Shown here: piece by piece, positions 31,175 through 47,924 of the stretch | Position numbering within the stretch: the stretch's first letter is position 1 | How the letters are laid out: the number at the start of each line of letters is the position of its first letter | NCBI GenBank assembly: GCA_963785235.1 | Contig: CAWAUM010000007.1 | Location: 240,768 to 304,767, forward strand | Length of the DNA: 64,000 nt | Source: an uncultured delta proteobacterium | Lineage (GTDB): Bacteria > Desulfobacterota > Desulfomonilia > UBA1062 | Direction of reading: 5' to 3' | Position numbers and translations under genes: made by a program | The notes under the pieces: model-generated | What the model saw: the letters and a program-made list of their open reading frames with translations, nothing else | The model's database searches: none | What the model was told of the DNA's origin: nothing

Positions 31175-31330
31175 ATCCCCCCTGATGGCCTGTCGCCTTG
31201 TATGGACGGATGATGCAGCTTATTCTCCCGTTGTTTTCCTCAAGCAGAGGTTATAGCCTGAGCTGAAAATAAACCATGTAATGCTTATAGTATTATACTA
31301 CATCCCAGGCTTCATCTTAATCAGATGGTC

Positions 31331-32135
31331 CTATATGGGTTTATCCAGTGCCTTGCGGGCGAAGATAGCAGCTCCCAGTGCCCCGATGATCTGGGGGTCC
31401 ACCGGCAGCGAGGTCACGTCCATGTTGATGATTTTTGCCAGTGCCCTGAGAAGACCCAGGTTTTTGGCACAGCCCCCCGTGACCGTAACCTGTGGACGCA
31501 TGCCGATGCGCTTGAGAAGGGTGAAGCACCGCTTGGACACGGCCGTCTGGATGCCTGCTGCTATCTCTTCCGGCGGATTCTTTCTGGCCAGGAGGCTTAT
31601 GACCTCGCTCTCGGCAAAGACACTGCACTGGGCCGTGACCGGTATGATCTTCCTGGCCTTGAGCGAAAGATCCGAGAACTGTCCCAGGTCCATGCGGAAT
31701 ATCCTGCTCATGGCCTCGAAGAAACGTCCGGTGCCGGCGGCGCACTTGTCGTTCATGGCGAACTCCAGGACAGAGCCGTCACCGTCGAGTGCAATGGCCT
31801 TCACATCCTGGCCGCCGATATCGATGATGGTTTTGATGAGGGGATTGCATGAGAAGGTGCCCATGGCGTGGCAGCTGATCTCCGAGATATTCTTGTTGGC
31901 AAAAGGCACCTCGTTTCTCCCGTAGCCGGTGCCCACCAGGTAGGCGATGTCCCGGTAGCTGCCCATATCCGGAACCTGGGCGCAGGCCTTTTCCAGGGCA
32001 AGTACCGAGGTCAGCTCCGGGATCGATCTCGCTGGGGACAATGGAACTGGCTATGATGGCGCCTGCTTCATTGATAATGACTGCCTTTCCTGTTGTCGAT
32101 CCCACGTCGCATCCGCCGAAATACTTTGTTGCCAT
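31331..32135 (-). CDS. ASKHA-type [4Fe-4S] activator (HgdC/BcrA-D family), frameshift near 32025
   Basis: GCDVGSTTGK, GTGYGR, EISCHA, DIGGQD, NDKCAAGTG, QCSVFAESE, TGGCAKN. Confidence 0.9.
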
Positions 32136-32172
32136 GTCTGTCTCCCTATCGTTATGATGTAGTTATTTATTT

Positions 32173-33483
32173 CTAGATATCAAGCATCCATCCCTTGCCC
32201 TGCAATTTCGCAATAACCTTTGCCGTGCTCAGGAACGTGGATCTGAACATATCGCTCATGATGGCACTCTTGACCGGCGGCAGCCTTAAAAAGGCGCCGA
32301 TAAAGGATCGCATGAATTCCTGGGTCATGCTTTGAGGGTTGTCGAATAACTGATTCTGCAGGGTGCCGCGCTCGAGTGATGACAGCATCGTCACCTCGAA
32401 GAGCGATTCAGGATGGAGAACCCTGCTGCTGCGGGGCATCATCTCAATGGCGCCTGTGGGACACTTTGCAATACAGACCCCACAGCCAACGCATATTCCT
32501 GTATTAACCTGGCCCTTTTTTCTTTTTATATTTTTGGGGTCATTTGCGGAATTCAGACTTAAGGCGTTCACCGGGCATACTTCAACACATTTTCCACATC
32601 CTGTACACTTGACGGTGTCTATCTTTGATATGAAGTTGGAGGTGATAACGCAATTCAAATATCCGAACTTGTTCAAACCGCCGAGGAAATTACAGCAACA
32701 TTTGCAGCAATGACAAATAGCCATGGGTTTCTGTTTGGTGTTAACAGAACAGAATACCAGATTAAAGTCTTTGGACCTGGCAAAATTGTCCATCATTTCA
32801 GACTGTGATACCTCACGTCCAAAATTGTTTCTGATAGCATATTCTGCACCTATCCCCAAAAAACAGCAGCTATCGAGCGGTGCATCGCATTCTTTATTGC
32901 CGGTGTGCAGCTTTTCATTCCTGCAGGAACATAAGCCGATGGCGAGTTTGGGAGAGCTCTCGATAAGCGATGTGGCCTTCTCATAATCAAAGAATTCCGT
33001 ATGGCTGTCTTCTTTAATGGATTCTTCTATGGGGATAACCCGTAGCGCAGAAACCTGTTCACTCTTGGAAAAGTTCGCTGCGTAGACAGAGCCGAAGTAT
33101 TCATGAAACAGCTCGGCCCATCTCTTCATATTGAGACTTTCTCCAGACCTCATCATGGTGAATTCGAATATCCCTATGGCTATGGGCCAGGGCATGTAGT
33201 AGTACTGGCCGTGGACTTCATTCCACAGGTCCATGACGAGCCCTTTCTTGCATAGCCTCTCCAGGATTCCCTGCAGACGGGTTTTCTCAAAGCCGGTGAC
33301 GTGTGAGATTCTCTCCAGCGAGGAGAGGGTGTAGGGCATTCTAACAACGACGTCTGCCTCATCAGTGGTGTACAGTTCCTTCAGAATGCTGTGCCATGTC
33401 TCGTTCCAGGGCGCCCTCACATTCAGGTTGTCTATCTTTTTCCCCAGTTTATAATATACCTGGCCTTCTTCTATCGTATGCAT
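32173..33483 (-). CDS. Multi-[4Fe-4S] protein (HTH-like N-terminus, CxCR..C, CHCCxCCC, ferredoxin domain)
   Basis: LCSCR, ICHCCKCCC, CTGCGKCVEVCP, CVGCGVCIAKCP; start MHTIEEG after AAGGAG. Confidence 0.85.
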   Translation of the reverse strand: MHTIEEGQVYYKLGKKIDNLNVRAPWNETWHSILKELYTTDEADVVVRMPYTLSSLERISHVTGFEKTRLQGILERLCKKGLVMDLWNEVHGQYYYMPWPIAIGIFEFTMMRSGESLNMKRWAELFHEYFGSVYAANFSKSEQVSALRVIPIEESIKEDSHTEFFDYEKATSLIESSPKLAIGLCSCRNEKLHTGNKECDAPLDSCCFLGIGAEYAIRNNFGREVSQSEMMDNFARSKDFNLVFCSVNTKQKPMAICHCCKCCCNFLGGLNKFGYLNCVITSNFISKIDTVKCTGCGKCVEVCPVNALSLNSANDPKNIKRKKGQVNTGICVGCGVCIAKCPTGAIEMMPRSSRVLHPESLFEVTMLSSLERGTLQNQLFDNPQSMTQEFMRSFIGAFLRLPPVKSAIMSDMFRSTFLSTAKVIAKLQGKGWMLDI

Positions 33484-33527
33484 CCTATAACTCCTTAATA
33501 TAAAATTATAAATAATCTGATCATGTC

Positions 33528-34964
33528 TTATTGATCGAGGCGCTGCGCCTTCATGACATTCTCCATGAAGAAATCCACCTGGTTCATCATGCTGTCTTTG
33601 GATACGATGCGTGGGTCGAGCAGGTCGTAATCGAGGATGAGCAGCGGTATCTTCATTTCCCGGCATTTCTCCCGCAGGATGCCGTTCATGGCCTGGCCGC
33701 TCTTGCAGCCCACGTGGTTCGCCACCCACACCATGTCGAGATCGAACTGCTTCACCATGCGGAAGATGTCGTCGAGATAGTTCTCCGCAGGCCCCCTGGT
33801 GTGGCGGACCATGGGACCCTGCATGATGGTCCTGCCCAGACCTCGGAGCATGGATTCGGGGGTCGAGGTGTCTATGGGCTCGTGGCGGTGAAATGTCATG
33901 CTGTCATTGATGACCGTGACCCCATAGGTGCGTTCGGTATGGTTGAAGATATCGATGAAATGGGGGAAGGGCGGGTTCCAGACAACGGCCCGGAATTTCT
34001 CATTATCCGTTGCGGGAATCCCTGCAGAGAGATTCTTCCGTGCCATTTCCACCAGCCGCTCATAATGCTTTATGGATATGGGGTGGCCTGGAAAGAGATT
34101 GACATGCCACATGTGGCTCAGGAATACGGCCTCGGCTGCAAGGGGGGCAGGCCTGACCCGGATCATGTCCCAGAGCTCCAGCTCAAGCTCCAGCATGCGG
34201 TTGCGGCCTTCACAGTTCTGTCTGAGGCGGTTCCAGTCCATGCGGCCGGGGGTATGTTCTTCAAGGAATGCGATCATGCCCTTGAGGTCCTCAGCAAAGA
34301 ACTTTTCCGCCCTTTCATTGTAGAAATTATGCGGGGCATCGATGCGGTATATGGGGATCCCCAGTTCCCGCTCCATGAGGGCATAGGACGCCATACCGGC
34401 ATCGCAGGGCATATTGGAGCTGAGCATGGCAAGACCCTTAGGCATCTGGCCCTTGAGCACCATGCCCATGGTAGCCTTGGGCAGACTGCATGCATCGGGA
34501 TTGACCCCGGCGTTTTCCGCTTCGTCTATGTATTTCAGGTCGCTTTTCCCCGCCAGAAAGGGCAGGAGCAGGCTCATGGATTCCAGCACCCAGACCTTCA
34601 AGCCCATGGCGCGTGCTATGTCGGGTGGGACCATCTCTTCACTGATGATCATACGCTCGGATTGGTAAAACAACTCCTCCAGGTTCTCTGCCAGGGTCAG
34701 CGAGACCGTGTAGACGGTCATGCAGATGGACTCCAGGTAGAAACCGCTCCGGGAGCGGCAGAGCCGCCGCATCAGGCCGGTCACTTTGAGCAGGTACAGC
34801 ATCCAGGGATAGCGGATGAGCTCGCGGACAAATCCCGGTCCCCGTTTCAGGACGAGTTTCGCAATACACAGCCAGATCAGGACCCAGTATCTGGCGTAGA
34901 TAAGGAAATCTTTAGCCGACAGGGTCAGTAAATCGCGTACAATTTCCCTGGATGGAATGCCCAA
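33528..34964 (-). CDS. 2-hydroxyacyl-CoA dehydratase/benzoyl-CoA reductase alpha-like subunit
   Basis: DACSLPK, NMPCDA, HVGCK (three Cys), LDYDLLDPR; hydrophobic N-terminal extension; start uncertain. Confidence 0.85.
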   Translation of the reverse strand: MGIPSREIVRDLLTLSAKDFLIYARYWVLIWLCIAKLVLKRGPGFVRELIRYPWMLYLLKVTGLMRRLCRSRSGFYLESICMTVYTVSLTLAENLEELFYQSERMIISEEMVPPDIARAMGLKVWVLESMSLLLPFLAGKSDLKYIDEAENAGVNPDACSLPKATMGMVLKGQMPKGLAMLSSNMPCDAGMASYALMERELGIPIYRIDAPHNFYNERAEKFFAEDLKGMIAFLEEHTPGRMDWNRLRQNCEGRNRMLELELELWDMIRVRPAPLAAEAVFLSHMWHVNLFPGHPISIKHYERLVEMARKNLSAGIPATDNEKFRAVVWNPPFPHFIDIFNHTERTYGVTVINDSMTFHRHEPIDTSTPESMLRGLGRTIMQGPMVRHTRGPAENYLDDIFRMVKQFDLDMVWVANHVGCKSGQAMNGILREKCREMKIPLLILDYDLLDPRIVSKDSMMNQVDFFMENVMKAQRLDQ

Positions 34965-35072
34965 AGGAGCTGATCAGGCCGGGAAGGGTTTGTAGAAAAG
35001 ACTTAATCCTGTTTATTATGTCATACGAATAGCTGATTTCATCCGGATAGGTATCAGGCACGGTTTTTGTCT

Positions 35073-36609
35073 TCATCTGGTTGCTGAAGCTCCCTTTCCA
35101 TCCAGGCGCGGGGCCTTCATGACGTTCTCCATGAAATGCTCAACCTGCCGCTTCATGTTGTCGTGGGACACGATGCGGGGGTCGCTCAGGTCATAATCAA
35201 GGATGAGCACGGGGATCCCCTTCTCCCGGCATTTCTCCCGCAGGATGCCGTTCATGGCCTGTCCGCCCTTGCAGCCCACGTGGTTTGCCACCCATACCAT
35301 GTCGAGATCGAACTGCTTGTGGGCGCGGAAGATGTCGTCCAGGTAGTTCTCGGCCGGCCCCCTGGTGTGGCGGACCATGGGGCCCTGCATGATGGTCCTG
35401 CCCCATCCCAGCAGCATGGATTCGGGCGTGGAGGTGTCGATGGGCTGGTGATGGTGGTAGGTCATGCTGTCGTTGATGACCGTCACGCCGTAGGTGCGCT
35501 CGGCCCAGTTGAAGATGTCGGAAAAATGAAGGAAGGGGGGGTTCCACACGATGGTCCGGTACCGTTCGTTGAGCGTGGCCGGGGTGTTGGTCTCAAGGTT
35601 CTTCCTGGCCATGTCCACGATCTTCTCGTAGTGCTGGACCGACGCCTCGTAATCCGGAGTGACATTCACATTCCAGAGGTGGCTCAGCCATACCGCCTCC
35701 GATGCCAGGGGGGCGGGCCGTAGCCGGAGCATGTCCCACAGCTCCAGCTCCAGCTCCAGGATGCGGTTGCGGTTGCCGCAGATCTTCCGGAAACGGTCCC
35801 AGTCCATGCGGCCCGGCGTGTGCTTTTCCAGCCAGGCGATCATGCCCTTCACGTCTTCCAAGAAAAGATTCTCCGCGCGCTCATTGAAAAAATGAAACGG
35901 CACGTCGAGACGGTAGGTGGGGATATCAAACATGCGCTGGATGAAGGCGTACGAGGCCGCACCGGCATCACAGGGCAGATTGGAGCTCACCATGGCGATC
36001 CCCTTGGGCAGGTGGCCCTTGATGACCATGCCCACGGTGGTCTTGGGCAGGCTGCAGGCATCTGCGTTCATCCCCTCGTTCTCCGCCTCGTCTATGTATT
36101 TCAGGCACGATTCCGCATCAATTATGGGCAGAACGATGCCCATGACTTCGAGCAGATAGGCGTCAAGCCCCATGGCATGGACGATGTCTATGGGAACCAG
36201 GTCTTCGTTTATGACCATGCGTTCAGGGTGGAAGAACATCTGCCTCAGCATGTCGGTGGTCCCGGTGACCACGGTGTGCAGGGCCAGGCAGACGGATTCA
36301 AGATACAACCCGGTCCTGCCCCGCCCATACCGGCTCATAAGTCTGTTGACCTTCAGAAGTATAAACAGCCAGGGATTTCTGATAAGCGTCCGGGCAGCAC
36401 CAACAGGTCCGAGGGTAACAGTCATCTCGGATAAGGAATTTCCCGATACAGTAATTATTTAAAGACCAGTATTTCAGGTACGTCAGCGCAGCCCCGGAAT
36501 CCCGCGAGCTGATGAGATATTCAGCCAGAGAGTTCTGCCATAAGCTCTTTCCTGGTCTCCGGCAGCTTCCCATCAGGGACGTGAGATATGCGCGCACGTT
36601 TTTCAACAT
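35073..36609 (-). CDS. Paralogous dehydratase/reductase alpha-like subunit (frameshift near 36460)
   Basis: DACSLPK, NLPCDA, HVGCK; N-terminus MLKNVRAY..LKYWSL in the adjacent frame aligns with YARYWVL of the neighbour. Confidence 0.83.
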
Positions 36610-36632
36610 GGAGGGTCCTCCCTGTGCAATCA

Positions 36633-37766
36633 TTATTTGCCCATGCTCTCGATGAAGGCCTGCACACGGGTGCGCAGCTGGCCTTCGCCGCCTGTCCGGT
36701 ATTCACGCTCCAGTTTCAGCACCGGTATCCCTTCTTTGCGCAGGGCGCTCACCAGGGGCATGGAATCCACCCCCCAGAGATCACAGAATTTGATGATCTC
36801 CAGGACCACGCCGTCCACCTTGTATTCCTTCACCGTGTCAATGATGGTCTGGAGCCTGAGATCGAAGTTCTCCATCATGCGCGGGCAGAGCGTCTTTTCA
36901 AAGGTATGCTCCGCCAGGGACCTGATGGGGTCGCCATTGACCTGTACGGGCTTGAATCCGGGAATGGTGCCGGTGCAGAAACGGTCCGCCACCACCATTG
37001 CCCCCTGGGACTCGATGATCTTGATGAAGGCCGGATCGTGCAGATGGCCACCCACCACCATCAGACGGGCCCGGTAATCATTGATTCCTTGGCGCTCTTC
37101 AAGCATTCTGCGGAACTCCATGAGGTCGGGCATGATCAGGTCCTTGGGCGAAACCAGGGAGGCCATGAGCAGGGTGTGGAACTCGGTTCCGGTAATGGGC
37201 GGGTCGGTCCTCTTCCGCAGATCTCCGATGGACCGGATCACTTCTGTGAACGCGTTCCATTCGTCAATGGCCTTCCTGAGCGAAGAATCGCTCATGTCCA
37301 CGCCGAAATGGGCGGAAAGCTTGTCCGCGAGCATCCTGAGTTCCTGGTCCAGCCAGGCAACGGTGTGCCCGTTCACCTTTCGCGGAACATCGATCACATG
37401 GTTGAACGCGGGCTTTTTCAGATACTCGAAGTTGTCGATGAGACGCTGCATGTGGGCGCAGGAAGGGACAAAAACCCATCCCTGTATCTGTTCGAACCGG
37501 TCATCCATGGCGAATTCCAGAATGCTCCGGGTGTACGAGCAGATCAGGCTGGAAAGGTAGTTGTCGGCAAGCTCGGTCCCTGCAACCCCGGGTGTATGCA
37601 GGCGCACGGGAAAGAGCCTGTCCGCCATGAGCAGGGCCTCGGGCACGAAGGAGCAGGAATACCCGATGGGTATGCGGCCATTCTGCGCAGCCTGCTCGAC
37701 CAGAGGGTTCTGTGGGTTTTCAAGAAGCTCTTCGAATACGCGCATTGTCTTGCCGGTTGTCGTCAT
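36633..37766 (-). CDS. Dehydratase/reductase beta-like subunit with six conserved-position Cys
   Basis: GYSCSFVPE, LICSY, PSCAH, RFCTG, LCPRM, KFCDLW, GQLRTRVQAFIE. Confidence 0.87.
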   Translation of the reverse strand: MTTTGKTMRVFEELLENPQNPLVEQAAQNGRIPIGYSCSFVPEALLMADRLFPVRLHTPGVAGTELADNYLSSLICSYTRSILEFAMDDRFEQIQGWVFVPSCAHMQRLIDNFEYLKKPAFNHVIDVPRKVNGHTVAWLDQELRMLADKLSAHFGVDMSDSSLRKAIDEWNAFTEVIRSIGDLRKRTDPPITGTEFHTLLMASLVSPKDLIMPDLMEFRRMLEERQGINDYRARLMVVGGHLHDPAFIKIIESQGAMVVADRFCTGTIPGFKPVQVNGDPIRSLAEHTFEKTLCPRMMENFDLRLQTIIDTVKEYKVDGVVLEIIKFCDLWGVDSMPLVSALRKEGIPVLKLEREYRTGGEGQLRTRVQAFIESMGK

Positions 37767-37844
37767 GACACTTCTCCCGGTACCATGGTGATCCCACGGC
37801 CTTCACCTATTATTTTCATCACCGTCAGCTCCTCCTTCGGCATG

Positions 37845-38687
37845 TCAATAGATACGCTCGCCTGGTTTAACATCGCCAAAGAGGCGGGCAAAGAGCGTGT
37901 TGTAAAGCGAAAAAATCACGATGTTGCCCAGCAGCCAGGACGAGCTTATGGCTTTCTGAGGGCAGATGTTCTGGCAGTGGTAGCACCGGATGCACCGGCC
38001 ATCCAGAACCGGGTAGGGATTCAGGGTAATGCTCTGCACCGGGCATTCGTCGGCGCATATCCCGCACTGATTGCACAGGGTCTGATCAATTTTGGGCTTG
38101 GGCAGGAGGATGCGCAGCAGGAATGGTTTCGCGATGAGGGCAACCAGGTCATAGAATCCCCAGTTGAGGCTTAAGGGGTCTTTTCCCCCTTCGTGTATAA
38201 CGCTTGAACCGCCGGCCTGCAGTTGCCTGTCCACTGCCTGGGCGAACGAGTGGGCACGTTCCAGATCCTCGTGATTCGGGCGCCCAGGCATGCGGCCGAT
38301 CAGGCAGGGTGCAGGATGATGCACCGTGCCGCGCCCCATGAAACCTGCGAGAACCGATGCGCCTTTACCCTGTATGATGTGTGCCAAGTCGTAGAGAACC
38401 CTTCCGGGAGATCCGCCCGAGGTGGCAAAGACAAAGGCGGGTTTGCCATAAAGTGGAGGCAAGGCAGTGAGAAAGTCCTTGACCGGCGTGGGGGCCTGGC
38501 TTTCAAAACAAGGCGTTCCCATGCCCAGCACATCACAGCTCAGGATATCCGCAGGCTGAGCCTCCTTCATGGACAGGGTGCGGACCGTGTGCCCTTTATC
38601 ACGAAAGGCCTCTGCCATGGTCTCGGCAACCTTGCGCGTATTCCCGGTCTGGGAGAAGTACACCAGCAGCATGTTCATCTCACTCAA
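37845..38687 (-). CDS. Flavodoxin-ferredoxin fusion (EFR1-like)
   Basis: YFSQTGNT, FATSGG, CNQCGICADECP, CIRCYHCQNICP. Confidence 0.85.
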   Translation of the reverse strand: MSEMNMLLVYFSQTGNTRKVAETMAEAFRDKGHTVRTLSMKEAQPADILSCDVLGMGTPCFESQAPTPVKDFLTALPPLYGKPAFVFATSGGSPGRVLYDLAHIIQGKGASVLAGFMGRGTVHHPAPCLIGRMPGRPNHEDLERAHSFAQAVDRQLQAGGSSVIHEGGKDPLSLNWGFYDLVALIAKPFLLRILLPKPKIDQTLCNQCGICADECPVQSITLNPYPVLDGRCIRCYHCQNICPQKAISSSWLLGNIVIFSLYNTLFARLFGDVKPGERIY

Positions 38688-38729
38688 GCCCTCCTTTCAA
38701 GTGCAATGATGGTGGACAATGTGACGCTT

Positions 38730-39500
38730 TCATGGCAATAATCCGATCTTTTCGAGGATGTGTGCGACCTTTAAGAGCGCAGGTGAGGTTTCAGGCATGC
38801 CGGTAAGCGGTTCGCCTCTGAAGTCGAACGATCTGATCAGGTCATCGTCGTCGAGCCATCCGTACATTTCAAGGTCTGTTCTGCCCCTGATGTCGTCCAC
38901 CTCTGGCTGGTTCCTCACCCTGTTGAGAACGAGCCCCATGCTCTTGAAGTCCACCGCCTTCTTCTCGTTCGCAACGTGCGCTATCGTATTTGCAACGCCA
39001 AGGCCCTTTACCGAGGTGTCCGACACCAGGACCAGGTGATCCACGGTCTTCATCACCCGCCTGTTGATCTGCTCGATGCCGGCCTCGCCATCGATGAGCA
39101 CGATGTCGAACCTGCCGGCCAGGTCACCGATGATGTCCTTGAGGAGGTTGTTCACCTTGCAGAAGCATCCCTCATCCTCGGGCCTGCCGATGGCAAGAAG
39201 GGCATATCCGTCACGTTCATGGAGGGCATCAAAGACCTCATAGTCCAGGAGCTTGAGCGTCTCCTTGCTCCCCTGGGGCTCGCCTTTCCGGATGTCTGCA
39301 ATGAGTCCCTTCCTGATGTCGTCCACGGTCTTTTTCACTGTAATGCCCAGGGCCGATGCCAGGCCCACTGCCGGGTCCGCGTCTATGGCGAGGATCTTCC
39401 GCCCGTTCCCGCAGGCCAGCAGCTTCACCATGAGGGCCGAGATAGAGGTCTTGCCGACACCCCCCTTGCCGCACAGCGCGATAATCTTTGTATCAGTCAT
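38730..39500 (-). CDS. cooC: CooC/AcsF-type nickel-insertion ATPase
   Basis: CGKGGVGKT, AIDADP, EGCFCKVN (CxC), DGEAGIEQINR; the ORF-track fusion with the upstream gene is caused by a frameshift. Confidence 0.85.
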   Translation of the reverse strand: MTDTKIIALCGKGGVGKTSISALMVKLLACGNGRKILAIDADPAVGLASALGITVKKTVDDIRKGLIADIRKGEPQGSKETLKLLDYEVFDALHERDGYALLAIGRPEDEGCFCKVNNLLKDIIGDLAGRFDIVLIDGEAGIEQINRRVMKTVDHLVLVSDTSVKGLGVANTIAHVANEKKAVDFKSMGLVLNRVRNQPEVDDIRGRTDLEMYGWLDDDDLIRSFDFRGEPLTGMPETSPALLKVAHILEKIGLLP

Positions 39501-40154
39501 GCAATACCTCTCGTGTTTTTTTCCAGGGCGGTTTCTGTCTCCTCGAGGACAGTGATCGCTGATTGCGCATAACCATCCGCCCCGTATTTTTCTGCCAGTT
39601 GCCGGTCCAGGGGGGCTCCGCCTACCATGATAACCGTGCCCGGGGCACGTCTGTTTTACCGTTCTGATTATGTCCGGCATACAGGCCATGGTAGTGGACA
39701 TCATGGCCGACAGGGCCAGGATATCGGCCTTGTTTTCGACAACCGCACGCTCGAACTCATCTGCCTTTACCTGCACACCCAGGTCAACTACCCGGTAGCC
39801 GCACGCCCTGTAGACCCCCGAAATTATGCTCTTGCCCAGATCGTGCGGGTCACCCTCGACAACGCCTATGACAACGGTCAAAGCCTCCTTATCTCCGGTG
39901 TCTCCGAATTCAGAGAGTTTCGCCAGACCCTGTGTTGCTGCGTCGATGCACAGGAGGAATTCGGGCAAAGAGGTATGATTCGACATCAAATTCCTTCTGA
40001 GGGTGTTGAGGCCATCGAGGATGGCGTGGCGCACCTCTTTCATGGAAAGACCGGCATCCATTGCCCTGGTCGTCAGCGCCACGGTTTCATCCACCTGGTA
40101 AGCAGCTACCGCTGCTTTGATTTTTTCCATAAGTCCAACTTCTCTCTTACTCAT
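39497..40154 (-). CDS. Corrinoid (B12-binding) methyl-carrier protein, frameshift near 39642
   Basis: Cap domain, GVVEGDPHDLGK, LSAMMSTT; removing one base restores IMVGGAP..YGADGYA and a TGA overlapping the cooC ATG. Confidence 0.87.
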
Positions 40155-40168
40155 CCGGGTCCCTCTTT

Positions 40169-41338
40169 TCATCCATACAGCTCTGCTGCCTTGACCATGG
40201 CATAGGCATTTTCAAGGGGGGCATTCTGGGGGAACTCGCAGCCGGGTGAAAGGATATAACCCCCGCCGGGAGCGAGGTCATCGATCTGTTTCCTGCATTC
40301 GGTCATGACATCGTAAGGGGTGCCGCGTGTCAGCAGCGGGGTGTCAATCATGCCGATGAGCACGATGTGGTCTCCATAGCGCTTCTTCAGCTCCTTACGG
40401 CTCGAACAGTCGTCCGGGAGGTGTGCGAAGCTTATTGCACAGGGCTCCATGCTTCGAATCTGTGCATCGAAATATATCCCGTGACCGCAGTTGTGCACCC
40501 CAACCAGGCAACCTTTTTTTCTGACTGCCGAGGCGATTTCCCGTGCAAACGGCCCCTCGATCTTTTCCCAGAGCTCCTTGGACAACCCGTTCCATGATGC
40601 GAAGAGGGTGTCGATTACAACCATAACCACCCCGGCGTCGCATTGCGCTTCTGCAAATTCAATGAGCGCACCCGTGATGGTCTCACACGCTGCCATGACA
40701 TCTTCCGGATTAGTAACACAGTCCTTGAAGAGTTCCTGTGTCCCCCGCATCATGTTGAGCACACCCAGCGGGCCGAAGAGAAAGCCTGCTACAAATCCCT
40801 TCAAGCCTATCCGGCGAACCATTATGGATAGCGCTTTTGTATACCCCTGCATGCGTATGGCATGCTTGAAATCGATGGGCTTGAGCTTCCGGTAACCCTC
40901 GATATTCTTGATCACCGGGTTCGCGTAGTCGGGATGTGCGGTGGAGTTGTCCGGGTAAATAAGCCTCTGTCCGAAATCGGCGGCCTCTATTGAGAGGTCC
41001 ACCAGCGCGACTATACCGTCACCGCCGATGAGATTGAAGCCGGCCACGAAGGACTCGGCAGCTATTACGGGGTCGGCGCAGAATTCCGCGTAGGTGTTTC
41101 CGATAAGCCGTCTGCCTGCGCCGCATATTATGGGGCAGCACGGGACATGGTCAGGCTCCTTGTGCCGCAGGGTCACCAGCATCCTCTCGAAATTTGTAAG
41201 GCTGCTGATGCGCCCCCTGGCACTGCATAAACCCCCTGCAGCATCCAGAAGGAAATCCGGCAGCAACGCGGGCGAGGGGGGTATCCCTCCAGCAAGGGTC
41301 TTCAGCGCTCTCCAAATATCCTTTGTTGTGTCAGCCAT
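40169..41338 (-). CDS. UroD-family methylcobalamin methyltransferase (MtaA/CmuA-like)
   Basis: EPDHVP, DLSIEAADFG, GPLG, HNCG and SPGCE Zn-type ligands. Confidence 0.85.
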   Translation of the reverse strand: MADTTKDIWRALKTLAGGIPPSPALLPDFLLDAAGGLCSARGRISSLTNFERMLVTLRHKEPDHVPCCPIICGAGRRLIGNTYAEFCADPVIAAESFVAGFNLIGGDGIVALVDLSIEAADFGQRLIYPDNSTAHPDYANPVIKNIEGYRKLKPIDFKHAIRMQGYTKALSIMVRRIGLKGFVAGFLFGPLGVLNMMRGTQELFKDCVTNPEDVMAACETITGALIEFAEAQCDAGVVMVVIDTLFASWNGLSKELWEKIEGPFAREIASAVRKKGCLVGVHNCGHGIYFDAQIRSMEPCAISFAHLPDDCSSRKELKKRYGDHIVLIGMIDTPLLTRGTPYDVMTECRKQIDDLAPGGGYILSPGCEFPQNAPLENAYAMVKAAELYG

Positions 41339-42069
41339 GCAGTGTCTCTTTTGATTTTTCCATGAGCTTATCCCTCATGCCTTTAAGTCCATCGGCCTCA
41401 TCGCATACATCCTGGTAGTCACAGCTCCCGCACTCGAAATCCATCTCGGCGGCCATCTTGTTCATGGCAGCGATAATCTTCTCCGCAGGCGCAGTGATCT
41501 CCTTGAGCCTGTGTACATCATCCGTGCTGGAGGTGAAGAAGATCACCTCGAAGGCCTTCACATAGGGCATCTCCTTGAAAGAGGGCCATGAGAGACGAGC
41601 CCAGTGACCGGGCGGAAAACCCCTGGGATAGGGATTCCCTGCTGATCCTGCACCACTCTCTCATGTACTGGGACACAGCCCTCATCATGAATCCCTTGAG
41701 GTCGAGGTCGTATCGCAGGAAATCGAGCTCCTTGTGCCGGTCATAGGCATTGTCTTCGGTGAAGCCTTCCACCCCCAACAGGACCACCTTGCCGAAGGGG
41801 AGGCTCTTGCCGACGCTCTCCTGGAAATCAGGGCCGATGAGGGTTATCCTGCCATCTGTAATGGCAGAGAGGTTCTCTGTCCACAGCAGGCATGACACGG
41901 ACTCCATTTCCGGGCTGCCCAGCTCAAGGGCCATGTCCTCCTTCAAGACGATGTTTCTGCCGTGTCCGCCCGGCCACAGCCTTTTATTATCAGCAACCCA
42001 GGACCTTTTGCTGGGCATGTCCTCTACAAAGGCCCGGACTGACTCGATGGTGTTGGTAAAAAGTTCCAT
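41331..42069 (-). CDS. Truncated acetyl-CoA synthase (AcsB/CdhC) middle-domain-like protein, frameshift near 41575
   Basis: LELG, ITDGRITLIGPD, LPFG, WCRISRE..GF, EVIFFT, C-terminal CGSCDYQDVC. Confidence 0.7.
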
Positions 42070-42077
42070 AGATTCCT

Positions 42078-42869
42078 TTATCCTGCCTTGTCAGCAGCCT
42101 GGCGGGCAATGAGCGCCGCACCAAGTGCCCCGATGATCTGTGGGTCGGTGGCCATCTTCTGGAGCTTCACCCCCAGCGCCTCCTCAAGGGCCGCGAACAT
42201 GCCGGTGTTTTTTGCCACCCCTCCGGTCATGGTGATTTCTTTATCGAGCTCTATGCCCCTGGCCAGAGCAGCCACCCGGTGGGCCAGTGACTTGTGCAGC
42301 CCTGCCACGATATCAGAAAGGTTGTTGCCTGCATTGATCAGCGAGATGATCTCCGTCTCTGCGAAGACCACGCACTGGTTGGAGATGGAAAGGGGGTTCT
42401 TAGACTTGGAGGATATTTCTCCCATGTCTTCGAGATTGATCCCCATTGCCCCTGACATCACCTCCAGGAACCTGCCCGTGCCGGAGGCGCACCGGTCGTT
42501 ATAGGCAAAACGGATGACATTGCCGCTATCATCCAGTCTGATGGCCTTGGCGTCCTGACCCCCGATGTCGATCACCATATGCACCTCAGGCATGAGCCAC
42601 TGGGCTCCTTTGCCGTGGCATATGATCTCTGACTCCACGGCATTGGCAAAGGGGATGGAGTTCCTGCCATAGCCTGTGCCCACGCAGTAGGCGATGTCTG
42701 CTAGGGTAAGCCCTGCCTTCTCCAGGGCCTTTTCCATCACTTCCCGGGCCGATTCCTCGGGTTCTGGTTTTGCAAATATAACGTGTGAGGCAAGCACATC
42801 ACCATTTGTCATGATGATTGCCTTGGCGCTCAATGATCCGACGTCACATCCTGCTACATACATGCTCAT
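42078..42869 (-). CDS. ASKHA-type activator subunit (BcrA/D-like)
   Basis: GCDVGS, GTGYGR, EIICHG, DIGGQD, NDRCASGTG, QCVVFAE. Confidence 0.9.
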   Translation of the reverse strand: MSMYVAGCDVGSLSAKAIIMTNGDVLASHVIFAKPEPEESAREVMEKALEKAGLTLADIAYCVGTGYGRNSIPFANAVESEIICHGKGAQWLMPEVHMVIDIGGQDAKAIRLDDSGNVIRFAYNDRCASGTGRFLEVMSGAMGINLEDMGEISSKSKNPLSISNQCVVFAETEIISLINAGNNLSDIVAGLHKSLAHRVAALARGIELDKEITMTGGVAKNTGMFAALEEALGVKLQKMATDPQIIGALGAALIARQAADKAG

Positions 42870-42910
42870 AATCTCTCCGTTACATGGTTTTGTTCTTTTT
42901 TAAAACCTGG

Positions 42911-42992
42911 CCCGTAAAAACTGATCATCTCGCCTCTGGTAAGGATGATGTTTCTCCCGAATCGTTCAGGCGAGATGATCAGTTTTTACGGG
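42911..42992. repeat. Perfect 25-bp inverted repeat with 32-nt spacer (REP/MITE-like)
   Basis: CCCGTAAAAACTGATCATCTCGCCT (42911-42935) and its exact reverse complement (42968-42992). Confidence 0.88.
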
Positions 42993-43054
42993 TTCATTTT
43001 TTTCTCCTGCAAACTATATTTCCACTGATGAAACATTGGCCCATTCTTCTCTCA

Positions 43055-43837
43055 TCAATTCTTTCCGGCCATCTCTTTGGCAAACACCGCAGCCCCCAGT
43101 GCCCCCATGACCTGAGGGTCCACCCTAAGCCTGCGCATGGGAACGCCCAGCTGTTTTTCCATGGCCTCGAGCACCCCGGCGTTCTTTGCAACACCGCCTG
43201 TCATGCACACATCCTTCTCAACACCCACTGACTTGGCCAGGATTGCAACCCTGGCCGCCATGGCCTGGTTGATGCCGGAAGCCAGGTCTGCCTTTGATGT
43301 GTTCGAGTTCAGGTGCATGATGACCTCGGCCTGGGCCCAGGCCGTGCAGGTGGCAGCCAAGGAGATGGGGTTTCTGGCCTGTGCGGATAGCTTGCCCAGG
43401 TCATCGAGCTCCAGGCCCAGGAGCTTTGCCATGACCTCGAGGAACCTGCCCGTACCCGAGGCGCACTTGTCATTGGTGATGAACCTGACAATGTTTCCCT
43501 TCTCATCGAGGCGGATGGCCTTGCAGTCCTGACCCCCGATGTCGATGATGGTCCTCACCGTTTGCAGGAGCCAGTGGGCGCCCTTGGCATGACAGGCGAT
43601 CTCGGACAGCGTCTTGCCCACAAAGGGTATCCGCTCCCTGCCGTAGCCGGTCCCTACGCAGAACCCGATGTCCTTCATGGTGAGCCCGGCAGCGCTCAAT
43701 GCCATATCCATAACCTCAGGGGCGGATTTTTCAGGATTGAAGGATGATGGGATCAGCGCCTGGCTGATGACACGGGTGTTGTTGAGGATCACCGCCTTGG
43801 TGGTGAGTGATCCAACGTCACAGCCTGCTGTGATCAT
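43055..43837 (-). CDS. ASKHA-type activator subunit (BcrA/D-like)
   Basis: MITAGCDVGS, GTGYGR, EIACHA, NDKCASGTG, TCTAWAQAE. Confidence 0.9.
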   Translation of the reverse strand: MITAGCDVGSLTTKAVILNNTRVISQALIPSSFNPEKSAPEVMDMALSAAGLTMKDIGFCVGTGYGRERIPFVGKTLSEIACHAKGAHWLLQTVRTIIDIGGQDCKAIRLDEKGNIVRFITNDKCASGTGRFLEVMAKLLGLELDDLGKLSAQARNPISLAATCTAWAQAEVIMHLNSNTSKADLASGINQAMAARVAILAKSVGVEKDVCMTGGVAKNAGVLEAMEKQLGVPMRRLRVDPQVMGALGAAVFAKEMAGKN

Positions 43838-45239
43838 GACGAAATCCCCCTTACGTGCATGAACTCGCTGATCTTGTCCACGCAGTGCTCCCATGATGCG
43901 ACGCGATCGTCAAAGGCATCGGCAAAGAGCAGCATGGTGGGCAGGCCTTCGCGCTCGCAGTCGCGCTGGATGAGTTTGTTCGCGCCCCAGCTGTTGCGGC
44001 ACCCCATGCTGCCTACATAGACCAGGAAGTCGGGCTTCATGATCTTGGACATGAAGAGGAGGTCGTCGCGCCACATCCCTGGCGCGTCATACGGTCCCCT
44101 GAGCTGTTTGACCATGGGCATGCGGGAGTTGAGATCGGCCAGGGAGTCGATCATGGTGTCCAGATTTGATGTGTCTATATGGTAGGTCTCGTCTTCGCGG
44201 CCTTTTGTATATTGATGCCCTCATTCCAGAAGTTGAATATGAGCGTGGGCAGGAGGCTGATATCCTGTGAGTCGACCCATTCCCAGAACCGTGCGTCAGT
44301 GGTGTAGTGGTCGATGTAGCACATGAGGAGCCGCGCCCGTTCCTTTTTTGAGGTCGTGCCGGCATGGCCCTGTGGCTGCATTTTCACGCACAACCTTGAG
44401 CATGGATTCCAGCACGGCGGTGTATGCCTTTCTGCCCGGCATGCTGAGCCTTCCGGCGTAGATGAAAAGGGTGAATATGGGAGGGACCGGGCATGGTTTG
44501 AGCCTCATGAGGTCATAGAGTTCGATTGAGAGCTCGTCCTGGCGCTTCTGCTCTTCAAGGAGTTCTTTCAGCTTGTCTTCGTTCAGCCTGGAGCCTGACT
44601 GTTCTTCAATGAAGGAGATAAGGGCCTTGTAGTCTTTCCGGTGATAGTCGTCGATCCTTTCCCCTGTGAGCTTTGAGGGGAAGTTGAGCTGGAACATGGG
44701 GAGGTCGAGGTAGGAGGAGAGAAACTGGACCGCATTGGCATTCGTGTCGCAGATGCCGGGAGCTCCGCAGATCAGAAAATCGGGTTTTTCGGCAAGGCCT
44801 GCCAGGTATGCCCCGAACGACCCGCGCTGGGCCGAGCAGGAGGTCTCAGTGAATCCTACCTCGCAGCAATAGTCCATGTACTCCGCCGTGCCCTTTCTCA
44901 ACGCCAGCGTACCGAATACGGTCATGGTCTCAGCCCATGCAGGCACCACGTTGTCAAAGGCGAAGAGCAGATGTTTTGCCGAGACAAAGGTTCCGAGGCA
45001 GAGCTTTTTGCCCTGTCATGCGCTGTCATGATGTCGTCGAGGTATTCTGCAAGCATCTTCATGAAGAGCACGCCGGGCTCCCCGTGCTTTAACATCGTAT
45101 TGCGACGGTCTTGAAGTTCGGTATGACCCGTGGTCAGGCTTTCATACTCCTTCTGCGTCCCATCAAGGGCCTTGGAAGCGGCACTGAAAATGCTCCAGAG
45201 CATCCAGTCGTAGTTATATTCTCTTGTTTCCTTCTTCAT
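43834..45239 (-). CDS. Dehydratase/benzoyl-CoA reductase alpha-like subunit, several frameshifts
   Basis: Fragments in consecutive frames: ETSCSAQRG, GICDT, PMVKQLRGP, MGCRN, ADAFDDR. Confidence 0.8.
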
Positions 45240-45252
45240 AGACTTTGCCTCC

Positions 45253-45495
45253 TCATACTGCCGACATGCTCAGATGTGCCCCGGACTTGATCCTCTGGAT
45301 GTAGAGCTTGGAGCGGTCCTTGAGGACCTCCAGGTCTGTCTTTCGGACAATATATTCCAGTGTCATAACCGCAGAGGTGGGGAACAAGGTGAGTGCATCG
45401 ATGGCCCGCTGCCTTTCGGCCAGCATTCTTTTGTCATCCAGCGCTATATCGCGTAAAACTTCTATGGCTATTGTTTCTCTGTCTATCTGGCACAT
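45253..45495 (-). CDS. Small helical protein (HEAT-like) between reductase subunits
   Basis: 80 aa, RBS AAGGAG, tightly packed between two subunit genes. Confidence 0.7.
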   Translation of the reverse strand: MCQIDRETIAIEVLRDIALDDKRMLAERQRAIDALTLFPTSAVMTLEYIVRKTDLEVLKDRSKLYIQRIKSGAHLSMSAV

Positions 45496-45506
45496 GAGAA
45501 TCTCCT

Positions 45507-46641
45507 TTATGAAATTCGCTCCATGAATGCATCGAGACGCATCCTTATCCTTCCCGTCTCCACCAGGGGGCCGTATTCCCTCTCGAGGCGCATGCAGGGG
45601 ATGCCTGCCGCCTCGAGGTCGCGCTCAAGGACACCGTTTTCCGAGCCATGAAGGTCGCAGAAGCGCACATTCTGAAGGATTACGCCGTCTACTGAGGCCT
45701 TCTTCACGAGGTCCATGATGTAGGAGCGCCGGTCCTTGTAGTAGCCGAGCATGCGCGGGCAGATGCTGTTGTGCAGGTAGTGCGATGCAAGGGCATGGAC
45801 GGGCTCTGCCTTATCGTCCACCAGGCTTGCATAGGTGCGTGACCCGAAGCACACGGTGTCTGCAACGACAACGGCGCCGCCGTCCTCGATAAGCTGATGA
45901 AGTCCAGATCGTCGTTGGCGCTCCCGATGAGCATGAGCCGCTTCTTCTGGTCTGACACGGATGGCGCCTTCTCCAGGTCATTAATGATCAGCCTTGAGCA
46001 TGTGGTTGAATGATTCCCGGGGTATGGCATGGCCTGCAATGAGGATGGCCATGGCATCCTCTCCCGTGATGGGCACTTCTGTGCGGTACCTGAGCGCATC
46101 GATCTTCTGCAGGAGTTCTCTTCCCTCGTTGTAGACCTTGATGGAATTTCTTCAGTGCCTTTGCCGTGATCTTCACCCCGAAATGTTTCTCAAGGGTTGC
46201 GATCATATCCTTGAGCTCGTTCTCGTAGAAATCGATGCTGTAATCCACCGCCTTGTGGGGCACGGAAAAATATTCATAGTATCCGGGTAGCGTCCCTGGG
46301 TAGTCTTCGCTCGCCTTTCTCCAGCACTCCTCGAGCCTGCGCATGGAGTCGCAGCCGTTACTGATAATGGCTCCGTCTAGGAAGTTGTATGACCCCTGTC
46401 CTGCAAGCTGGAGCATGCACTTGGGGAGGCTGCAGTTTACCGGACCGTAGTAAGAGTCGCCGATGGAGAGGGACGTGGTCCCTATGCCCCGCAGCCTGAA
46501 GGGCAGGAGCCCTGCTGCATGAAGGATCTCTTCGGGGATGAAGGTGCAGGAATAACCGACAATCTTGCCCCCTTCATCCTTGTGCTTCTGTACGAGCTCG
46601 CTGCACAAGGTGTTTGCTGCATCTTTCATCTTCTCGATCAT
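45507..46641 (-). CDS. Dehydratase/reductase beta-like subunit with six Cys, several frameshifts
   Basis: GYSCTFIPEE, VNCSL, NGCDS, DTVCFGSR, SICPRM, RFCDLH, GRIRMRLDAFME across frames. Confidence 0.82.
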
Positions 46642-47924
46642 CTCACACCCCCTGATGAGGGCTGGGTATCGCCTTGGAACTTCGAGACATCGGGGTAATT
46701 GCCGTGGCCGGTTGTTTCGTTATCTCCGGTCAATTCGGAGATGCCCCTCTTGAGTATGGGCATTAGGGCAGACGCAAGCGGTTTCAATGCCCCTACCACG
46801 TCTGGCACCAGCCACTCGGCAGTCCTCACGATATCCTGTGTCTTTAAGGAATCGACCACCCCGCTGATGAGATTCGCCACGAGGTCGGGTCTGGCATCAT
46901 GGATCTTGTTGATGACCCTGCTGGCTGTATTGATCAGCTCCGCGGCTTCAAAGGTGTCCAGATCCGTCATACTCTCGCTCACTGCTGCCTTCAGGCCGGT
47001 TTCCTCCAGATTCTCAATGAGGGAAAGCCTGCGGTTCCCGGCCCTGATGCCCGAGCTTTTCACCGCCCCTATGGATGCGATATGGGACAGCAGTATCTGG
47101 GGATTGGCAGAGGCTGCATCAGCATACGCATTCGCTATTGCCTCCTTGTCTTCCGCAAACATGATGCTGACCTTTCTGGCGAGCTCAGGATCAATCTCCT
47201 TGAAATACTCACCCATGAGATCGGTGAGATACATCTGGAGTAGAGGCTTGTTTCCCTTTCCGACCAGGAGACTCCCCGTATGCAGCCGCCTGTAGAGTTC
47301 CTTTACCGTATTCACAAGTTTCGCCGTATCGGTGCCGTTCACACCTTTGACAAGGGAGAGGATGATGTCGGCAAACAGGTCCGGCCCGATGGCGTTCACG
47401 ATGGGGAGCATGACTTCCCGCGAGGCCCTTATGGCGGTATTGATGAGAGGGATAAGGGTCGCAACGACTGTTCCGACCTTTGCAGGATACCTCCAGAGGT
47501 GGGCGTTGAAGGCCCCGAGGGTCTTCAGCACACCCTCGTCGCATCCTTCGACCATCTCCCGGATCTCTCCGAAGTCAGTGTTCACAATGAAGTCCCTTAT
47601 GGAATCACCCCTGGTTTCATCGTGAATGCCGGGGAACAAGGTTCGGTTTTCGTTGACCGATGCGGCAAACAGGGTGATGAGCCTGCCCACGTCGGCAGCG
47701 ATGGAGCCCGGTTCTTCGGGCACATCATGGTGCATGCCCCGGGAGAGCAGGCTCCTCACCGGAGAGGTGATCTTTTTCTTGAAACTGCTTCCGTCCGACC
47801 ATTGATCCAGAAAATTACGGATTACGGACGAGATCAGACGCCCCTTTCCCTCGGTCCGTATGATCTTTCCGGCGATCCGGCCGATGGTATCAATGATCTG
47901 TTCCTGGTACTTGCTCGTCATCAT
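46638..47924 (-). CDS. Hypothetical helical protein, first gene of the reductase operon
   Basis: Long ORF; its stop overlaps the next start (ATGA); no recognised motif. Confidence 0.75.
   Translation of the reverse strand: MMTSKYQEQIIDTIGRIAGKIIRTEGKGRLISSVIRNFLDQWSDGSSFKKKITSPVRSLLSRGMHHDVPEEPGSIAADVGRLITLFAASVNENRTLFPGIHDETRGDSIRDFIVNTDFGEIREMVEGCDEGVLKTLGAFNAHLWRYPAKVGTVVATLIPLINTAIRASREVMLPIVNAIGPDLFADIILSLVKGVNGTDTAKLVNTVKELYRRLHTGSLLVGKGNKPLLQMYLTDLMGEYFKEIDPELARKVSIMFAEDKEAIANAYADAASANPQILLSHIASIGAVKSSGIRAGNRRLSLIENLEETGLKAAVSESMTDLDTFEAAELINTASRVINKIHDARPDLVANLISGVVDSLKTQDIVRTAEWLVPDVVGALKPLASALMPILKRGISELTGDNETTGHGNYPDVSKFQGDTQPSSGGVR

Follow-up and report, generated by a model that had tools for sequence, protein, structure and literature searches.

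An operon for a putative ATP-driven iron–sulfur enzyme system with an acetyl-CoA synthase fragment and a CooC-type ATPase in Smithella-like syntrophs

A block of 16 genes in the genome of an uncultured delta proteobacterium (GenBank assembly GCA_963785235.1, contig CAWAUM010000007.1) joins two sets of subunits related to benzoyl-CoA reductase (BCR) with a shortened acetyl-CoA synthase (ACS), here called mini-ACS, and a CooC/AcsF-type ATPase. The whole stretch of 64,000 nucleotides that was analysed is termed the window, and the genes are read from position 47924 down to position 31331 on its minus strand. This locus is one of three copies, within the same genome, of an operon typical of Smithella-like syntrophs, and probably encodes an ATP-driven iron–sulfur enzyme system of the BCR/dehydratase/double-cubane superfamily. 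Members of this superfamily carry out the most reducing chemistry known in biology, and few of their substrates have been assigned. We know of no superfamily member that needs a nickel-chaperone-type ATPase or an ACS-derived subunit. As far as our literature searches show, the core system is undescribed and its mini-ACS/CooC accessory is without a described counterpart; these searches found no paper on an ACS fragment or CooC in such operons, or on this operon in Smithella. Term searches of the portions available of PMC7317905 returned no CooC and nothing on gene context, and those of PMC12583861 nothing on this cluster.

A conserved core of reductase-type, mini-ACS and CooC genes

Pfam matches and coordinates bear out the list and order of the 16 genes that a preliminary description of this DNA had read from the letters of the sequence, all on the minus strand. 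The overlapping stop and start codons that it had noticed are real by coordinates. Specifically, open reading frames (ORFs) overlap where a gene for a hypothetical protein meets the first beta-like subunit, where mini-ACS meets an MtaA-like methyltransferase gene, and where the latter meets a corrinoid protein gene. HGD-D domains are recognized in two beta-like and three alpha-like subunits with E values from 1e-25 to 3e-83 except for the final piece of the first alpha, which matches only at 2e-06, and BcrAD_BadFG domains are recognized in three ASKHA ATPases (4e-47 to 8e-60). All 16 genes are there as presented, but six of them are frame-broken in this copy, which the preliminary description overlooked.

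A pattern scan using one genome per species yielded 20 related loci, which belong to metagenome-assembled genomes (MAGs) named Smithella, Smithellaceae, Syntrophaceae, Syntrophales, Desulfomonilia, ‘delta proteobacterium’ and Bacteriovoracaceae (three). Their core order begins with module A, comprising the hypothetical protein, a beta subunit (beta A), in many cases an 80-aa protein, an alpha subunit (alpha A) and two ATPases, and continues with mini-ACS and CooC. Mostly there then follows module B, comprising a beta subunit (beta B), an alpha subunit, in some cases a polyferredoxin, and a further ATPase. The comparison of gene order across genomes that the preliminary description had called for finds this core order conserved, but not, for the most part, the order of the methyl-transfer genes.

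The association of mini-ACS with its neighbours is close. An ATPase gene lies directly upstream of it in all 19 loci that have upstream sequence, and CooC lies directly downstream in 17 of 20, after an inserted gene pair in two (L026, which is genome G002, and L028) and beyond the contig end in the remaining one. Module A is complete (hypothetical protein, beta, alpha and two ATPases) in 14 of the 20 loci, the others being cut by contig ends. Module B is found in 16, is cut in two, and is absent despite available downstream sequence in two (L040 and L042). These last two loci, together with the copy on contig 5 of the present genome, carry module A, mini-ACS and CooC without module B, and the converse was not seen.

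Other components vary more widely. The 80-aa protein gene sits between beta and alpha in 14 of 20 loci and is absent in G002, the polyferredoxin gene is present in nine, and the flavodoxin–ferredoxin gene is present in three as well as in all three copies of this genome. A second alpha B subunit, as in the window, also occurs in L027, L031, L034 and L037. When genomes were sampled with a mini-ACS profile, 19 of 24 from the same family gave a match and 0 of 16 from the sister family.

The three operon copies of this genome lie in the window, on contig 13 and on contig 5. The contig 13 copy is 91.5% identical to the window over its first 7 kb and lacks the MtaA-like, corrinoid and polyferredoxin genes. 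The contig 5 copy is 91% identical to the window over the middle 5 kb, includes the MtaA-like/corrinoid pair and ends after the flavodoxin–ferredoxin gene, without the second module.

Both modules retain the cluster ligands of BzdN and BzdO

In the class I BCR described in the available part of PMC11971306, the BzdN subunit holds an [8Fe–9S] double-cubane cluster through Cys36, Cys73, Cys100, Cys263, Cys293 and Cys327, and the BzdO subunit holds an open-site [4Fe–4S] cluster through Cys95, Cys128 and Cys380. All six BzdN ligands align with cysteines in both beta A (45507–46641, BzdN-like, frame-broken, with HGD-D on two pieces) and beta B (36633–37766, intact, HGD-D 3e-83) when compared by HMMER with solved chains. 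These six cysteines are kept in 15 of 15 orthologues of each beta subunit, a count that took in ORFs only where they span 85% or more of the reference, cut or broken copies being dropped. By alignment, the first of these six positions is not occupied by a cysteine in HadC. In 2-hydroxyacyl-CoA dehydratases the beta subunit carries a [4Fe–5S] remnant of the cluster, as stated in the accessible text of PMC11971306, whereas both betas here keep the six-Cys double-cubane set.

Likewise, residues C135, C164 and C414 of alpha A (43834–45239, BzdO/HadB-like, frame-broken, HGD-D on pieces), which are conserved in 16 of 16 orthologues, align with BzdO Cys95, Cys128 and Cys380. Alpha B1 (35073–36633, frame-broken, HGD-D 1.5e-53) has three cysteines at or next to the same positions, kept in 15 of 15, where the two cysteine numberings for alpha B are matched by spacing. 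Against chain 8s02_A, the alpha subunits have cysteines at positions 95 and 380 and at or next to 128, in alignments that are weak (4e-03 for alpha A and 6e-07 for alpha B1). The third alpha subunit, alpha B2 (33528–34964, HGD-D 1.4e-53), is intact. Judged by these ligand patterns, both modules have the BzdNO lay-out rather than a dehydratase lay-out in which the double-cubane has been lost.

Alpha A carries four further conserved cysteines, of which C125 and C126 (a CC pair) and C158 are invariant among 16 orthologues and C307 is kept in 14 of 16 (numbering of the ORF at 12497–13903 of L019). It is possible that they form an additional metal or cluster site.

Module A encodes two distinct ATPases, here called act1 (43055–43837, HgdC/BzdQ-like, PF01869 8e-60) and act2 (42078–42869, PF01869 6e-59), that are 49–51% identical to each other, and module B encodes one (ATPase 3, 31331–32135, frame-broken, PF01869 on the larger piece). 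Each carries a conserved pair of cysteines, C144/C183 in act1 (16 of 16), C127/C166 in act2 (17 of 17) and C131/C170 in ATPase 3 (9 of 9). Their spacing presumably corresponds to that of the cluster-bridging pair of HgdC.

No module subunit reaches the cut-off of a curated model for a BCR, dehydratase or double-cubane protein. The BCR equivalog models of NCBIfam (TIGR03190, TIGR03191, TIGR03192 and TIGR02263) give 147 and 107 bits for bzdN (beta B being the lower) against a cut-off of 454, 153 against 421 for bcrC, 32 against 449 for bzdO with alpha B2, and 205 (act1) and 194 against 380 for bzdQ. The HadC model NF052456 gives 154 and 110 bits against 700, and the HadB model NF052455 gives 36 and 37 against 750. 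For both betas the best NCBIfam model is double_cubane (NF040772), with 173 bits for beta A and 164 (163.5) for beta B against 350. The sole model passed by module subunits is the generic activase domain model TIGR00241, at 232 (ATPase 1) and 248 bits against 125. By the measure of these curated models, the system is placed outside all characterised subfamilies. The preliminary description had named a grouping of the subunits with characterised BCRs as a condition against its reading; family scores and ligand alignments served for this comparison, and the scores set the subunits apart from the curated subfamilies.

Several known enzymes resemble parts of this system. The closest in make-up are the class I BCRs (BzdNOPQ and MbdNOPQ; 8s02, 9g87; available text of PMC11971306), which share the six double-cubane cysteines in beta, the three cysteines of the open-site [4Fe–4S] cluster in alpha and, in module A, two distinct ASKHA ATPases, and among solved structures BzdN ranks first or second in similarity to either beta. 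However, the similarity to BzdN amounts to just about 130 and 110 bits, that to BzdO has E values of 6e-07 to 4e-03, both ATPases of module A are short and HgdC-sized, and the conserved hypothetical protein, 80-aa protein, mini-ACS and CooC are extra here. The hosts differ as well, since class I BCRs are tied to facultative anaerobes in the portion available of PMC11971306, whereas the operon here is found in strict syntrophs.

The double-cubane cluster protein with its reductase (DCCP/DCCP-R; 6eno, 7yyl) shares the six-Cys betas and, with module B, a single homodimer-type ATPase. It differs in being a homodimer with a double-cubane cluster in each subunit, whereas the genes here encode heterodimers whose alphas keep three ligand positions, and the score to its model is about half of the cut-off of 350. 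The 2-hydroxyacyl-CoA dehydratases (HadBC/HadI and HgdAB/HgdC; 3o3m) belong to the same HGD-D superfamily. HadC is by a hair the best solved relative of beta A, and HadB is that of alpha A; the ATPases here also pass the acyl-CoA dehydratase activase domain model.

An improbable account of these data is that a class I benzoyl-CoA (or analogue) reductase of the ordinary kind stands beside an ordinary 2-hydroxyacyl-CoA dehydratase, the other genes being unrelated neighbours. It would agree with the four-subunit BzdNOPQ make-up and cluster ligands of module A, with the standing of BzdN and HadC as the best solved relatives of beta A, and with genes for anaerobic hydrocarbon breakdown that the window also bears. 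Nevertheless, the bzdN, bcrC and HadC scores fall far under their curated cut-offs, beta B too is of the six-Cys type, unlike the dehydratases, and mini-ACS, CooC, the hypothetical protein and the 80-aa protein accompany the enzyme in nearly all loci.

Mini-ACS resembles the middle domain of ACS and is paired with CooC

The mini-ACS gene (41331–42069, PF03598 (CdhC) 2e-12) is frame-broken in the window and encodes a protein of 245 aa that ends about 25 residues past a C-terminal CxxCx5C motif. A structure model of the contig 13 paralogue built with 33 sequences has a pLDDT of 85, and a Foldseek search with this model returned only ACS entries at E <0.001 (23 chains). VIA-align superposes 172 residues on positions 316–495 of Moorella ACS (1oao_C) with Z 20.0 and rmsd 2.2 Å, compared with Z 3.6 for the next unrelated fold, and all chains above Z 4 are of ACS. 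By its predicted fold, mini-ACS corresponds to the middle (A2) domain of ACS. In the first ACS structure paper, the middle domain was reportedly thought to bind CoA.

The CxxC of mini-ACS falls at most three residues from the first CxxC of the C-x2-C-x8-C-x9-C cubane motif in the full ACS of the same genome, and the two proteins share both the fold of residues 316–495 and a CxxC...C at the first cubane ligands. At this site mini-ACS has only three cysteines; it lacks the fourth cubane cysteine, the N-terminal domain and the A3 domain of ACS (AcsB/CdhC, 1oao), and no carbon monoxide dehydrogenase (CODH) or corrinoid iron–sulfur protein gene is nearby. Its score in the cdhC model is 35 bits against a cut-off of 356. 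The preliminary description had remarked that no CODH or full ACS is present, which holds within the window; a full-length ACS gene is found on contig 5.

CxxCx5C is kept in all 20 related loci, and the protein belongs to a broad family. Run against 1.84 billion representatives, a profile gave 662, 486 and 171 matches at E values up to 1e-3, 1e-10 and 1e-30, respectively, the last being clusters at 50% identity. Nearly all of the best 150 matches are 230–250 aa in length, and of the 122 among them with a length of 220 aa or more, 118 carry a CxxCx5C near the C terminus, one has a ferredoxin-type motif and three have neither. These relatives are annotated as ‘hypothetical’ or as ‘CODH/ACS beta subunit’.

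The adjoining CooC/AcsF-type ATPase gene (38730–39500, CbiA/AAA_31, MinD-type), which overlaps with the mini-ACS gene where the two are neighbours, encodes a protein similar over its full length to Carboxydothermus CooC1 (3kje), its best solved relative (E 2.8e-18). The deviant Walker A P-loop GKGGVGKT and the CxC motif align with those of CooC1, and the two cysteines of the latter (C112 and C114) are kept in 19 of 19. We take the CxC of CooC-type ATPases to be a nickel-binding site.

Because the two proteins are homologous to ACS and to its nickel insertase, the simplest account is a hand-over in which CooC most likely delivers a metal or cluster to the three cysteines of mini-ACS. There is about an even chance that mini-ACS loaded in this way would then serve as an additional module A subunit that binds a CoA ester or a metal.

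A B12 methyl-transfer pair is an optional addition to the operon

In the window, two genes for B12-dependent methyl transfer lie between mini-ACS and CooC. The first (40169–41338; PF01208, E 1.6e-56 to 2e-57) encodes an MtaA-like methyltransferase of the URO-D family whose residues H282, C284 and C367 are invariant in nine of nine sequences. We take this HxC...C pattern to be the zinc site of thiol-methylating URO-D family members. The second (39497–40172, PF02310/PF02607, frame-broken here) encodes a corrinoid protein with a cap, a B12-binding domain and a DxHxxG motif. Its orthologues are intact at 224–225 aa, with DPHDLGK invariant in six of six.

Like pairs of the MtaA/MtaC kind, a URO-D enzyme with HxC...C is here adjacent to a cap-plus-Rossmann corrinoid protein with DxHxxG, and the two always occur as an adjacent pair. 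Unlike those pairs, the proteins score under family cut-offs (99.9 against 235.4 bits in TIGR01463 and 74 against 400 in NF040654 for the MtaA-like protein, and 110 against 215 in TIGR02370 for the corrinoid protein), and the operon has no substrate-specific methyltransferase or activase. The two-gene thiol systems MtsAB and MtpCA are presumably comparable pairs. We know of no coenzyme M in the host bacterium.

The pair stands between mini-ACS and CooC in only two of the 20 genome loci, two of the 18 metagenome loci and two of the three copies of this genome. It is not a defining part of the system because the core operon mostly lacks a corrinoid gene, and we regard it as a lineage-specific optional addition outside the core mechanism. 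The preliminary description had proposed one new combined system; its reductase, mini-ACS and CooC components do form a conserved set, but the B12 genes fall outside it.

Relationships among the copies suggest how the pair arrived. All in-operon MtaA copies (window, contig 5, G002, G011, L028, L046 and L047) are 92–98% identical to one another, and the intact in-operon arrangement is present on an independent metagenome contig (L046). Other MtaA-like relatives are 52–64% identical and have a corrinoid gene directly after them wherever the sequence is uncut. Among the 18 metagenome loci, two are in-operon, 13 are stand-alone pairs, two are cut inside the MtaA-like gene and one is undecided; this last (L063) is a short contig whose MtaA-like start is 88% identical, with no mini-ACS match in 680 bases upstream. 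Stand-alone pairs are also present in genomes G007, G009, G012, G015 and G024, and no stand-alone pair adjoins a mini-ACS, CooC or HGD-D gene. As read from these sequences, the pair is probably a self-contained module that entered the operon once, recently, in a young sub-lineage.

If so, the pair could be a mere passenger, a self-sufficient two-gene module that is co-transcribed, acts on its own substrate and has no chemical link to the reductase, and we give this view slightly less than an even chance. The frequent stand-alone occurrence of the pair and its rarity in the operon would be expected of a passenger, as would the fact that the contig 13 copy of the same genome does without it and has all its other genes open. 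The identity of at least 92% among all in-operon copies fits a single recent event. On the other hand, the pair sits exactly between two overlapping genes, with overlaps retained, or rebuilt, on both sides, and this tight stop/start coupling argues for more than a passenger. Moreover, no fewer than four species-level lineages have retained the pair, this genome has it in two copies, and its site adjoins a protein derived from ACS, the one enzyme family known to take a methyl group from a corrinoid protein. The precision of the insertion and the ACS ancestry of its neighbour make a functional link between pair and reductase possible. A structure prediction for the corrinoid protein with mini-ACS gave a score of 0.01, which counts neither way.

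The strongest form of such a link would be one in which a nickel or NiFeS site on mini-ACS, loaded by CooC, takes the corrinoid methyl group in the manner of the ACS A-cluster and exchanges it with a radical or carbanion of an acyl-CoA, giving an ATP-powered reductive C-methylation or demethylation. In operons lacking B12 genes, the same site would perform another C1 or thioester step. We consider this scheme highly unlikely.

Least probable of the readings considered is that the ASKHA ATPases stand in for RamA or RACo in re-reducing Co(II), which would make the whole operon a single reductive methylation/demethylation machine. A Pfam scan finds no RACo or RamA gene in the operon, and ASKHA metallo-ATPases deliver very low-potential electrons (available portion of PMC7317905), which is in keeping with this idea. 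The absence of RamA/RACo noted in the preliminary description holds for the window, but two RACo-type genes are present elsewhere in the genome, so that corrinoid reactivation by the ASKHA proteins is not a necessity. Furthermore, many loci contain the three ATPases and yet encode no corrinoid protein.

The stand-alone pair lies beside an enolase gene in two species of one genus (G009 and G012; L023, 9940–11797, and L025, 1177–3034), and no further methyltransferase or activase gene is close by. In one relative (L030, 16469–20738; G003, contig 12, about 38700–42000), the operon is followed within a few kilobases by genes for an SDR protein, a RACo-type activase and a corrinoid protein, together with URO-D paralogues. 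A link between this RACo–corrinoid–URO-D cluster and the operon was considered and set aside as chance, since elsewhere the URO-D paralogue is on other contigs than mini-ACS.

Frame breaks in the window copy more probably reflect assembly error than decay

Six of the 16 genes (beta A, alpha A, mini-ACS, the corrinoid protein, alpha B1 and ATPase 3) are frame-broken in the window. The breaks were located by comparing gene pieces with relatives, by aligning the DNA to the contig 13 paralogue and by mapping intact orthologues back onto the window. They are accounted for by about 11 single-base indels, none of which is common to any relative.

Beta A is spread over three frames by indels near 46150, 45990 and 45893, and its pieces fall in one frame in G002 and in the contig 13 and contig 5 copies. 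Alpha A has indels near 45133, 45102, about 45018, 44374 and 44216. Mini-ACS is in two frames with a break at about 41600. The corrinoid gene is broken at about 39645 and reads on into the CooC frame as a single 480-aa ORF; Pfam matches cover only the first 175 residues of the corrinoid protein, the last 50 being in another frame. Alpha B1 is broken at about 36430, with its conserved N terminus in frame −3 and the remainder in frame −1, and ATPase 3 is in two frames with a break at about 32025, its G002 orthologue (270 aa) being intact. Indeed, the orthologous cluster of G002, a genome of the same genus, and the contig 13 paralogue are open throughout, and the mini-ACS and corrinoid genes are unbroken on the independent contig L046.

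At six of the indel sites the window differs by one base from short-read contigs of relatives, assembled from four runs (three DNA and one RNA); these contigs show that the indels are peculiar to the window sequence and do not decide whether they are real. Contigs from one RNA library match parts of the relatives’ genes at 90–95% identity, which is not proof of transcription. Reads of the source sample were sought among sequencing runs, and the best run contained a fraction of 0.21 of the sampled words.

Assembly error is the likelier explanation of the breaks because the genes rpoC (contig 3, 146059–150280) and full-length acsB (contig 5, 292132–295515, L001) of the same assembly are also split, into two and three frames, respectively; its rpoB and secA are whole. 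Outside the cluster, a carboxyltransferase gene of the window (26680–28048) is likewise broken, its two ORFs overlapping in different frames and matching Carboxyl_trans profile positions 1–262 and 254–418. L044, a locus in another long-contig MAG, has its hypothetical protein in five pieces, beta A in three and one ATPase in three.

Alternatively, the window copy might be a decaying redundant paralogue with real mutations, only the other two copies being functional, which we think rather unlikely. Some of the evidence does speak for decay. There are about 11 breaks in 16.6 kb, eight of them within 2 kb, as against one seen in the remaining 47 kb or so of the window; the 14-kb contig 13 copy has none and the contig 5 copy a single one. 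Local decay, or mis-polishing among paralogues, would explain this density as well as random error does. In addition, the indels are absent from all relatives, including the short-read contigs just mentioned, and a genome with three copies has redundancy, the window copy being mosaic, with 91% identity to each of the other two over a different part. Against decay stand the splitting of essential or central genes of the assembly (rpoC and acsB) and the similar fragmentation of L044. Moreover, the copy is otherwise ordinary in its substitution divergence and keeps 10 of its 16 genes open.

A proposed mechanism and its significance

In the mechanism that we propose, the flavodoxin–ferredoxin fusion and the polyferredoxin would reduce a [4Fe–4S] cluster held between two ATPase subunits, and ATP hydrolysis would drive the electron onto the double-cubane cluster of beta. 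The electron would then pass to the alpha cluster, where an acyl-CoA-type substrate may be reduced, or dehydrated via a ketyl radical. CooC would load a metal or cluster on mini-ACS, itself an extra subunit of module A. The B12 pair, where present, would be optional and co-expressed, and might process a methyl group carried by a thiol-type, substrate-related compound.

The two candidate electron donors are encoded within the locus. The flavodoxin–ferredoxin fusion (37845–38687; Flavodoxin and Fer4 domains) belongs to the EFR1 family, with 107.7 bits in NF038196 against a cut-off of 75. The Cys-rich polyferredoxin-like protein (32173–33483; Fer4 families) has two Fer4 motifs, a CxC and a CHCCxCCC stretch, and 20 of its cysteines are kept in six of six sequences.

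Flanking genes point to a CoA-thioester substrate. Among nine loci whose flanks were inspected, a TetR gene is present in six and a pair of acyl-CoA-dehydrogenase-like genes in nine (one member seen in L042). A TetR gene also flanks the operon in G002, and the contig 5 copy has one upstream of it along with two acyl-CoA-dehydrogenase-like genes. Downstream of the contig 13 copy there are genes for an acyl-CoA ligase (FadD) and an aldehyde:ferredoxin oxidoreductase, the latter being found in G002 as well.

Several observations weigh against the interpretation of the locus as a double-cubane reductase system with a metal-loaded mini-ACS. All equivalog models are missed widely, such that the choice between reductase and dehydratase chemistry hangs on the cluster ligands, and the alphas are remote from solved chains (2e-09 between alpha A and HadB, and 6e-07 between alpha B1 and BzdO). 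The four extra cysteines of alpha A have no counterpart in BzdO or HadB by alignment. Mini-ACS is devoid of the whole A3 domain and hence of the nickel-binding part of ACS, which we take to be the Cys-Gly-Cys of the A-cluster domain. Finally, homology to CooC is the sole ground on which nickel would be assigned to the system.

The system is standard in Smithella-like syntrophs, which live near the thermodynamic limit. ATP spent on each electron is costly under such circumstances, and the substrate must therefore matter to these organisms. Understanding the role of mini-ACS and CooC could uncover a metal site, or a way of assembling iron–sulfur enzymes, that is new, and the B12 insertion is a natural variant for asking whether ACS-like methyl chemistry has joined radical thioester chemistry.

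Other genes of the locus and its surroundings

The first core gene (46638–47924) encodes an all-helical hypothetical protein of 428 aa, and the 80-aa protein is encoded by an open frame at 45253–45495. Neither has a Pfam or NCBIfam match. An AlphaFold model of the hypothetical protein made with 14 orthologues has a mean pLDDT of 39.5 and is unusable, and in the Atlas this protein matches just unnamed clusters of hypothetical proteins (best 0.91).

A scan for promoters and terminators over 30700–50200 found terminator-like sites no more often than in shuffled sequences, and none within the operon on the minus strand was convincing. The act1 and act2 genes are separated by a spacer of 185 bases in the window (42870–43054) and by a similar one of 187 bases in L028, compared with gaps of 8–30 bases in other related loci.

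Upstream of the operon, on the same strand, genes for a GMC-type flavoprotein and an ABM-domain protein (48090–49853, from Pfam matches) are present in the window and contig 13 copies only, where they are 97% and 85% identical, respectively; in their place, other loci have the TetR gene and the acyl-CoA-dehydrogenase-like pair. At the opposite end, adjacent plus-strand genes for DUF4037, NAD-dependent epimerase-type and DUF4125 proteins (28244–30759) face the end of the cluster.

Further genes of note lie in more distant parts of the window. Two glycyl-radical enzymes of 797 and 875 aa, with PFL-like and Gly_radical domains, are encoded within positions 142–14553, and a radical-SAM activase lies near each of them; between the two are genes for a sigma-54 regulator, the small and large subunits of a B12 mutase, MeaB and an MmgE/PrpD protein. 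This region looks like one for hydrocarbon activation by fumarate addition. On the other side of the operon, positions 51832–54249 encode an 805-aa fusion of ferredoxin, pyridine-nucleotide-disulfide oxidoreductase and nitroreductase domains.

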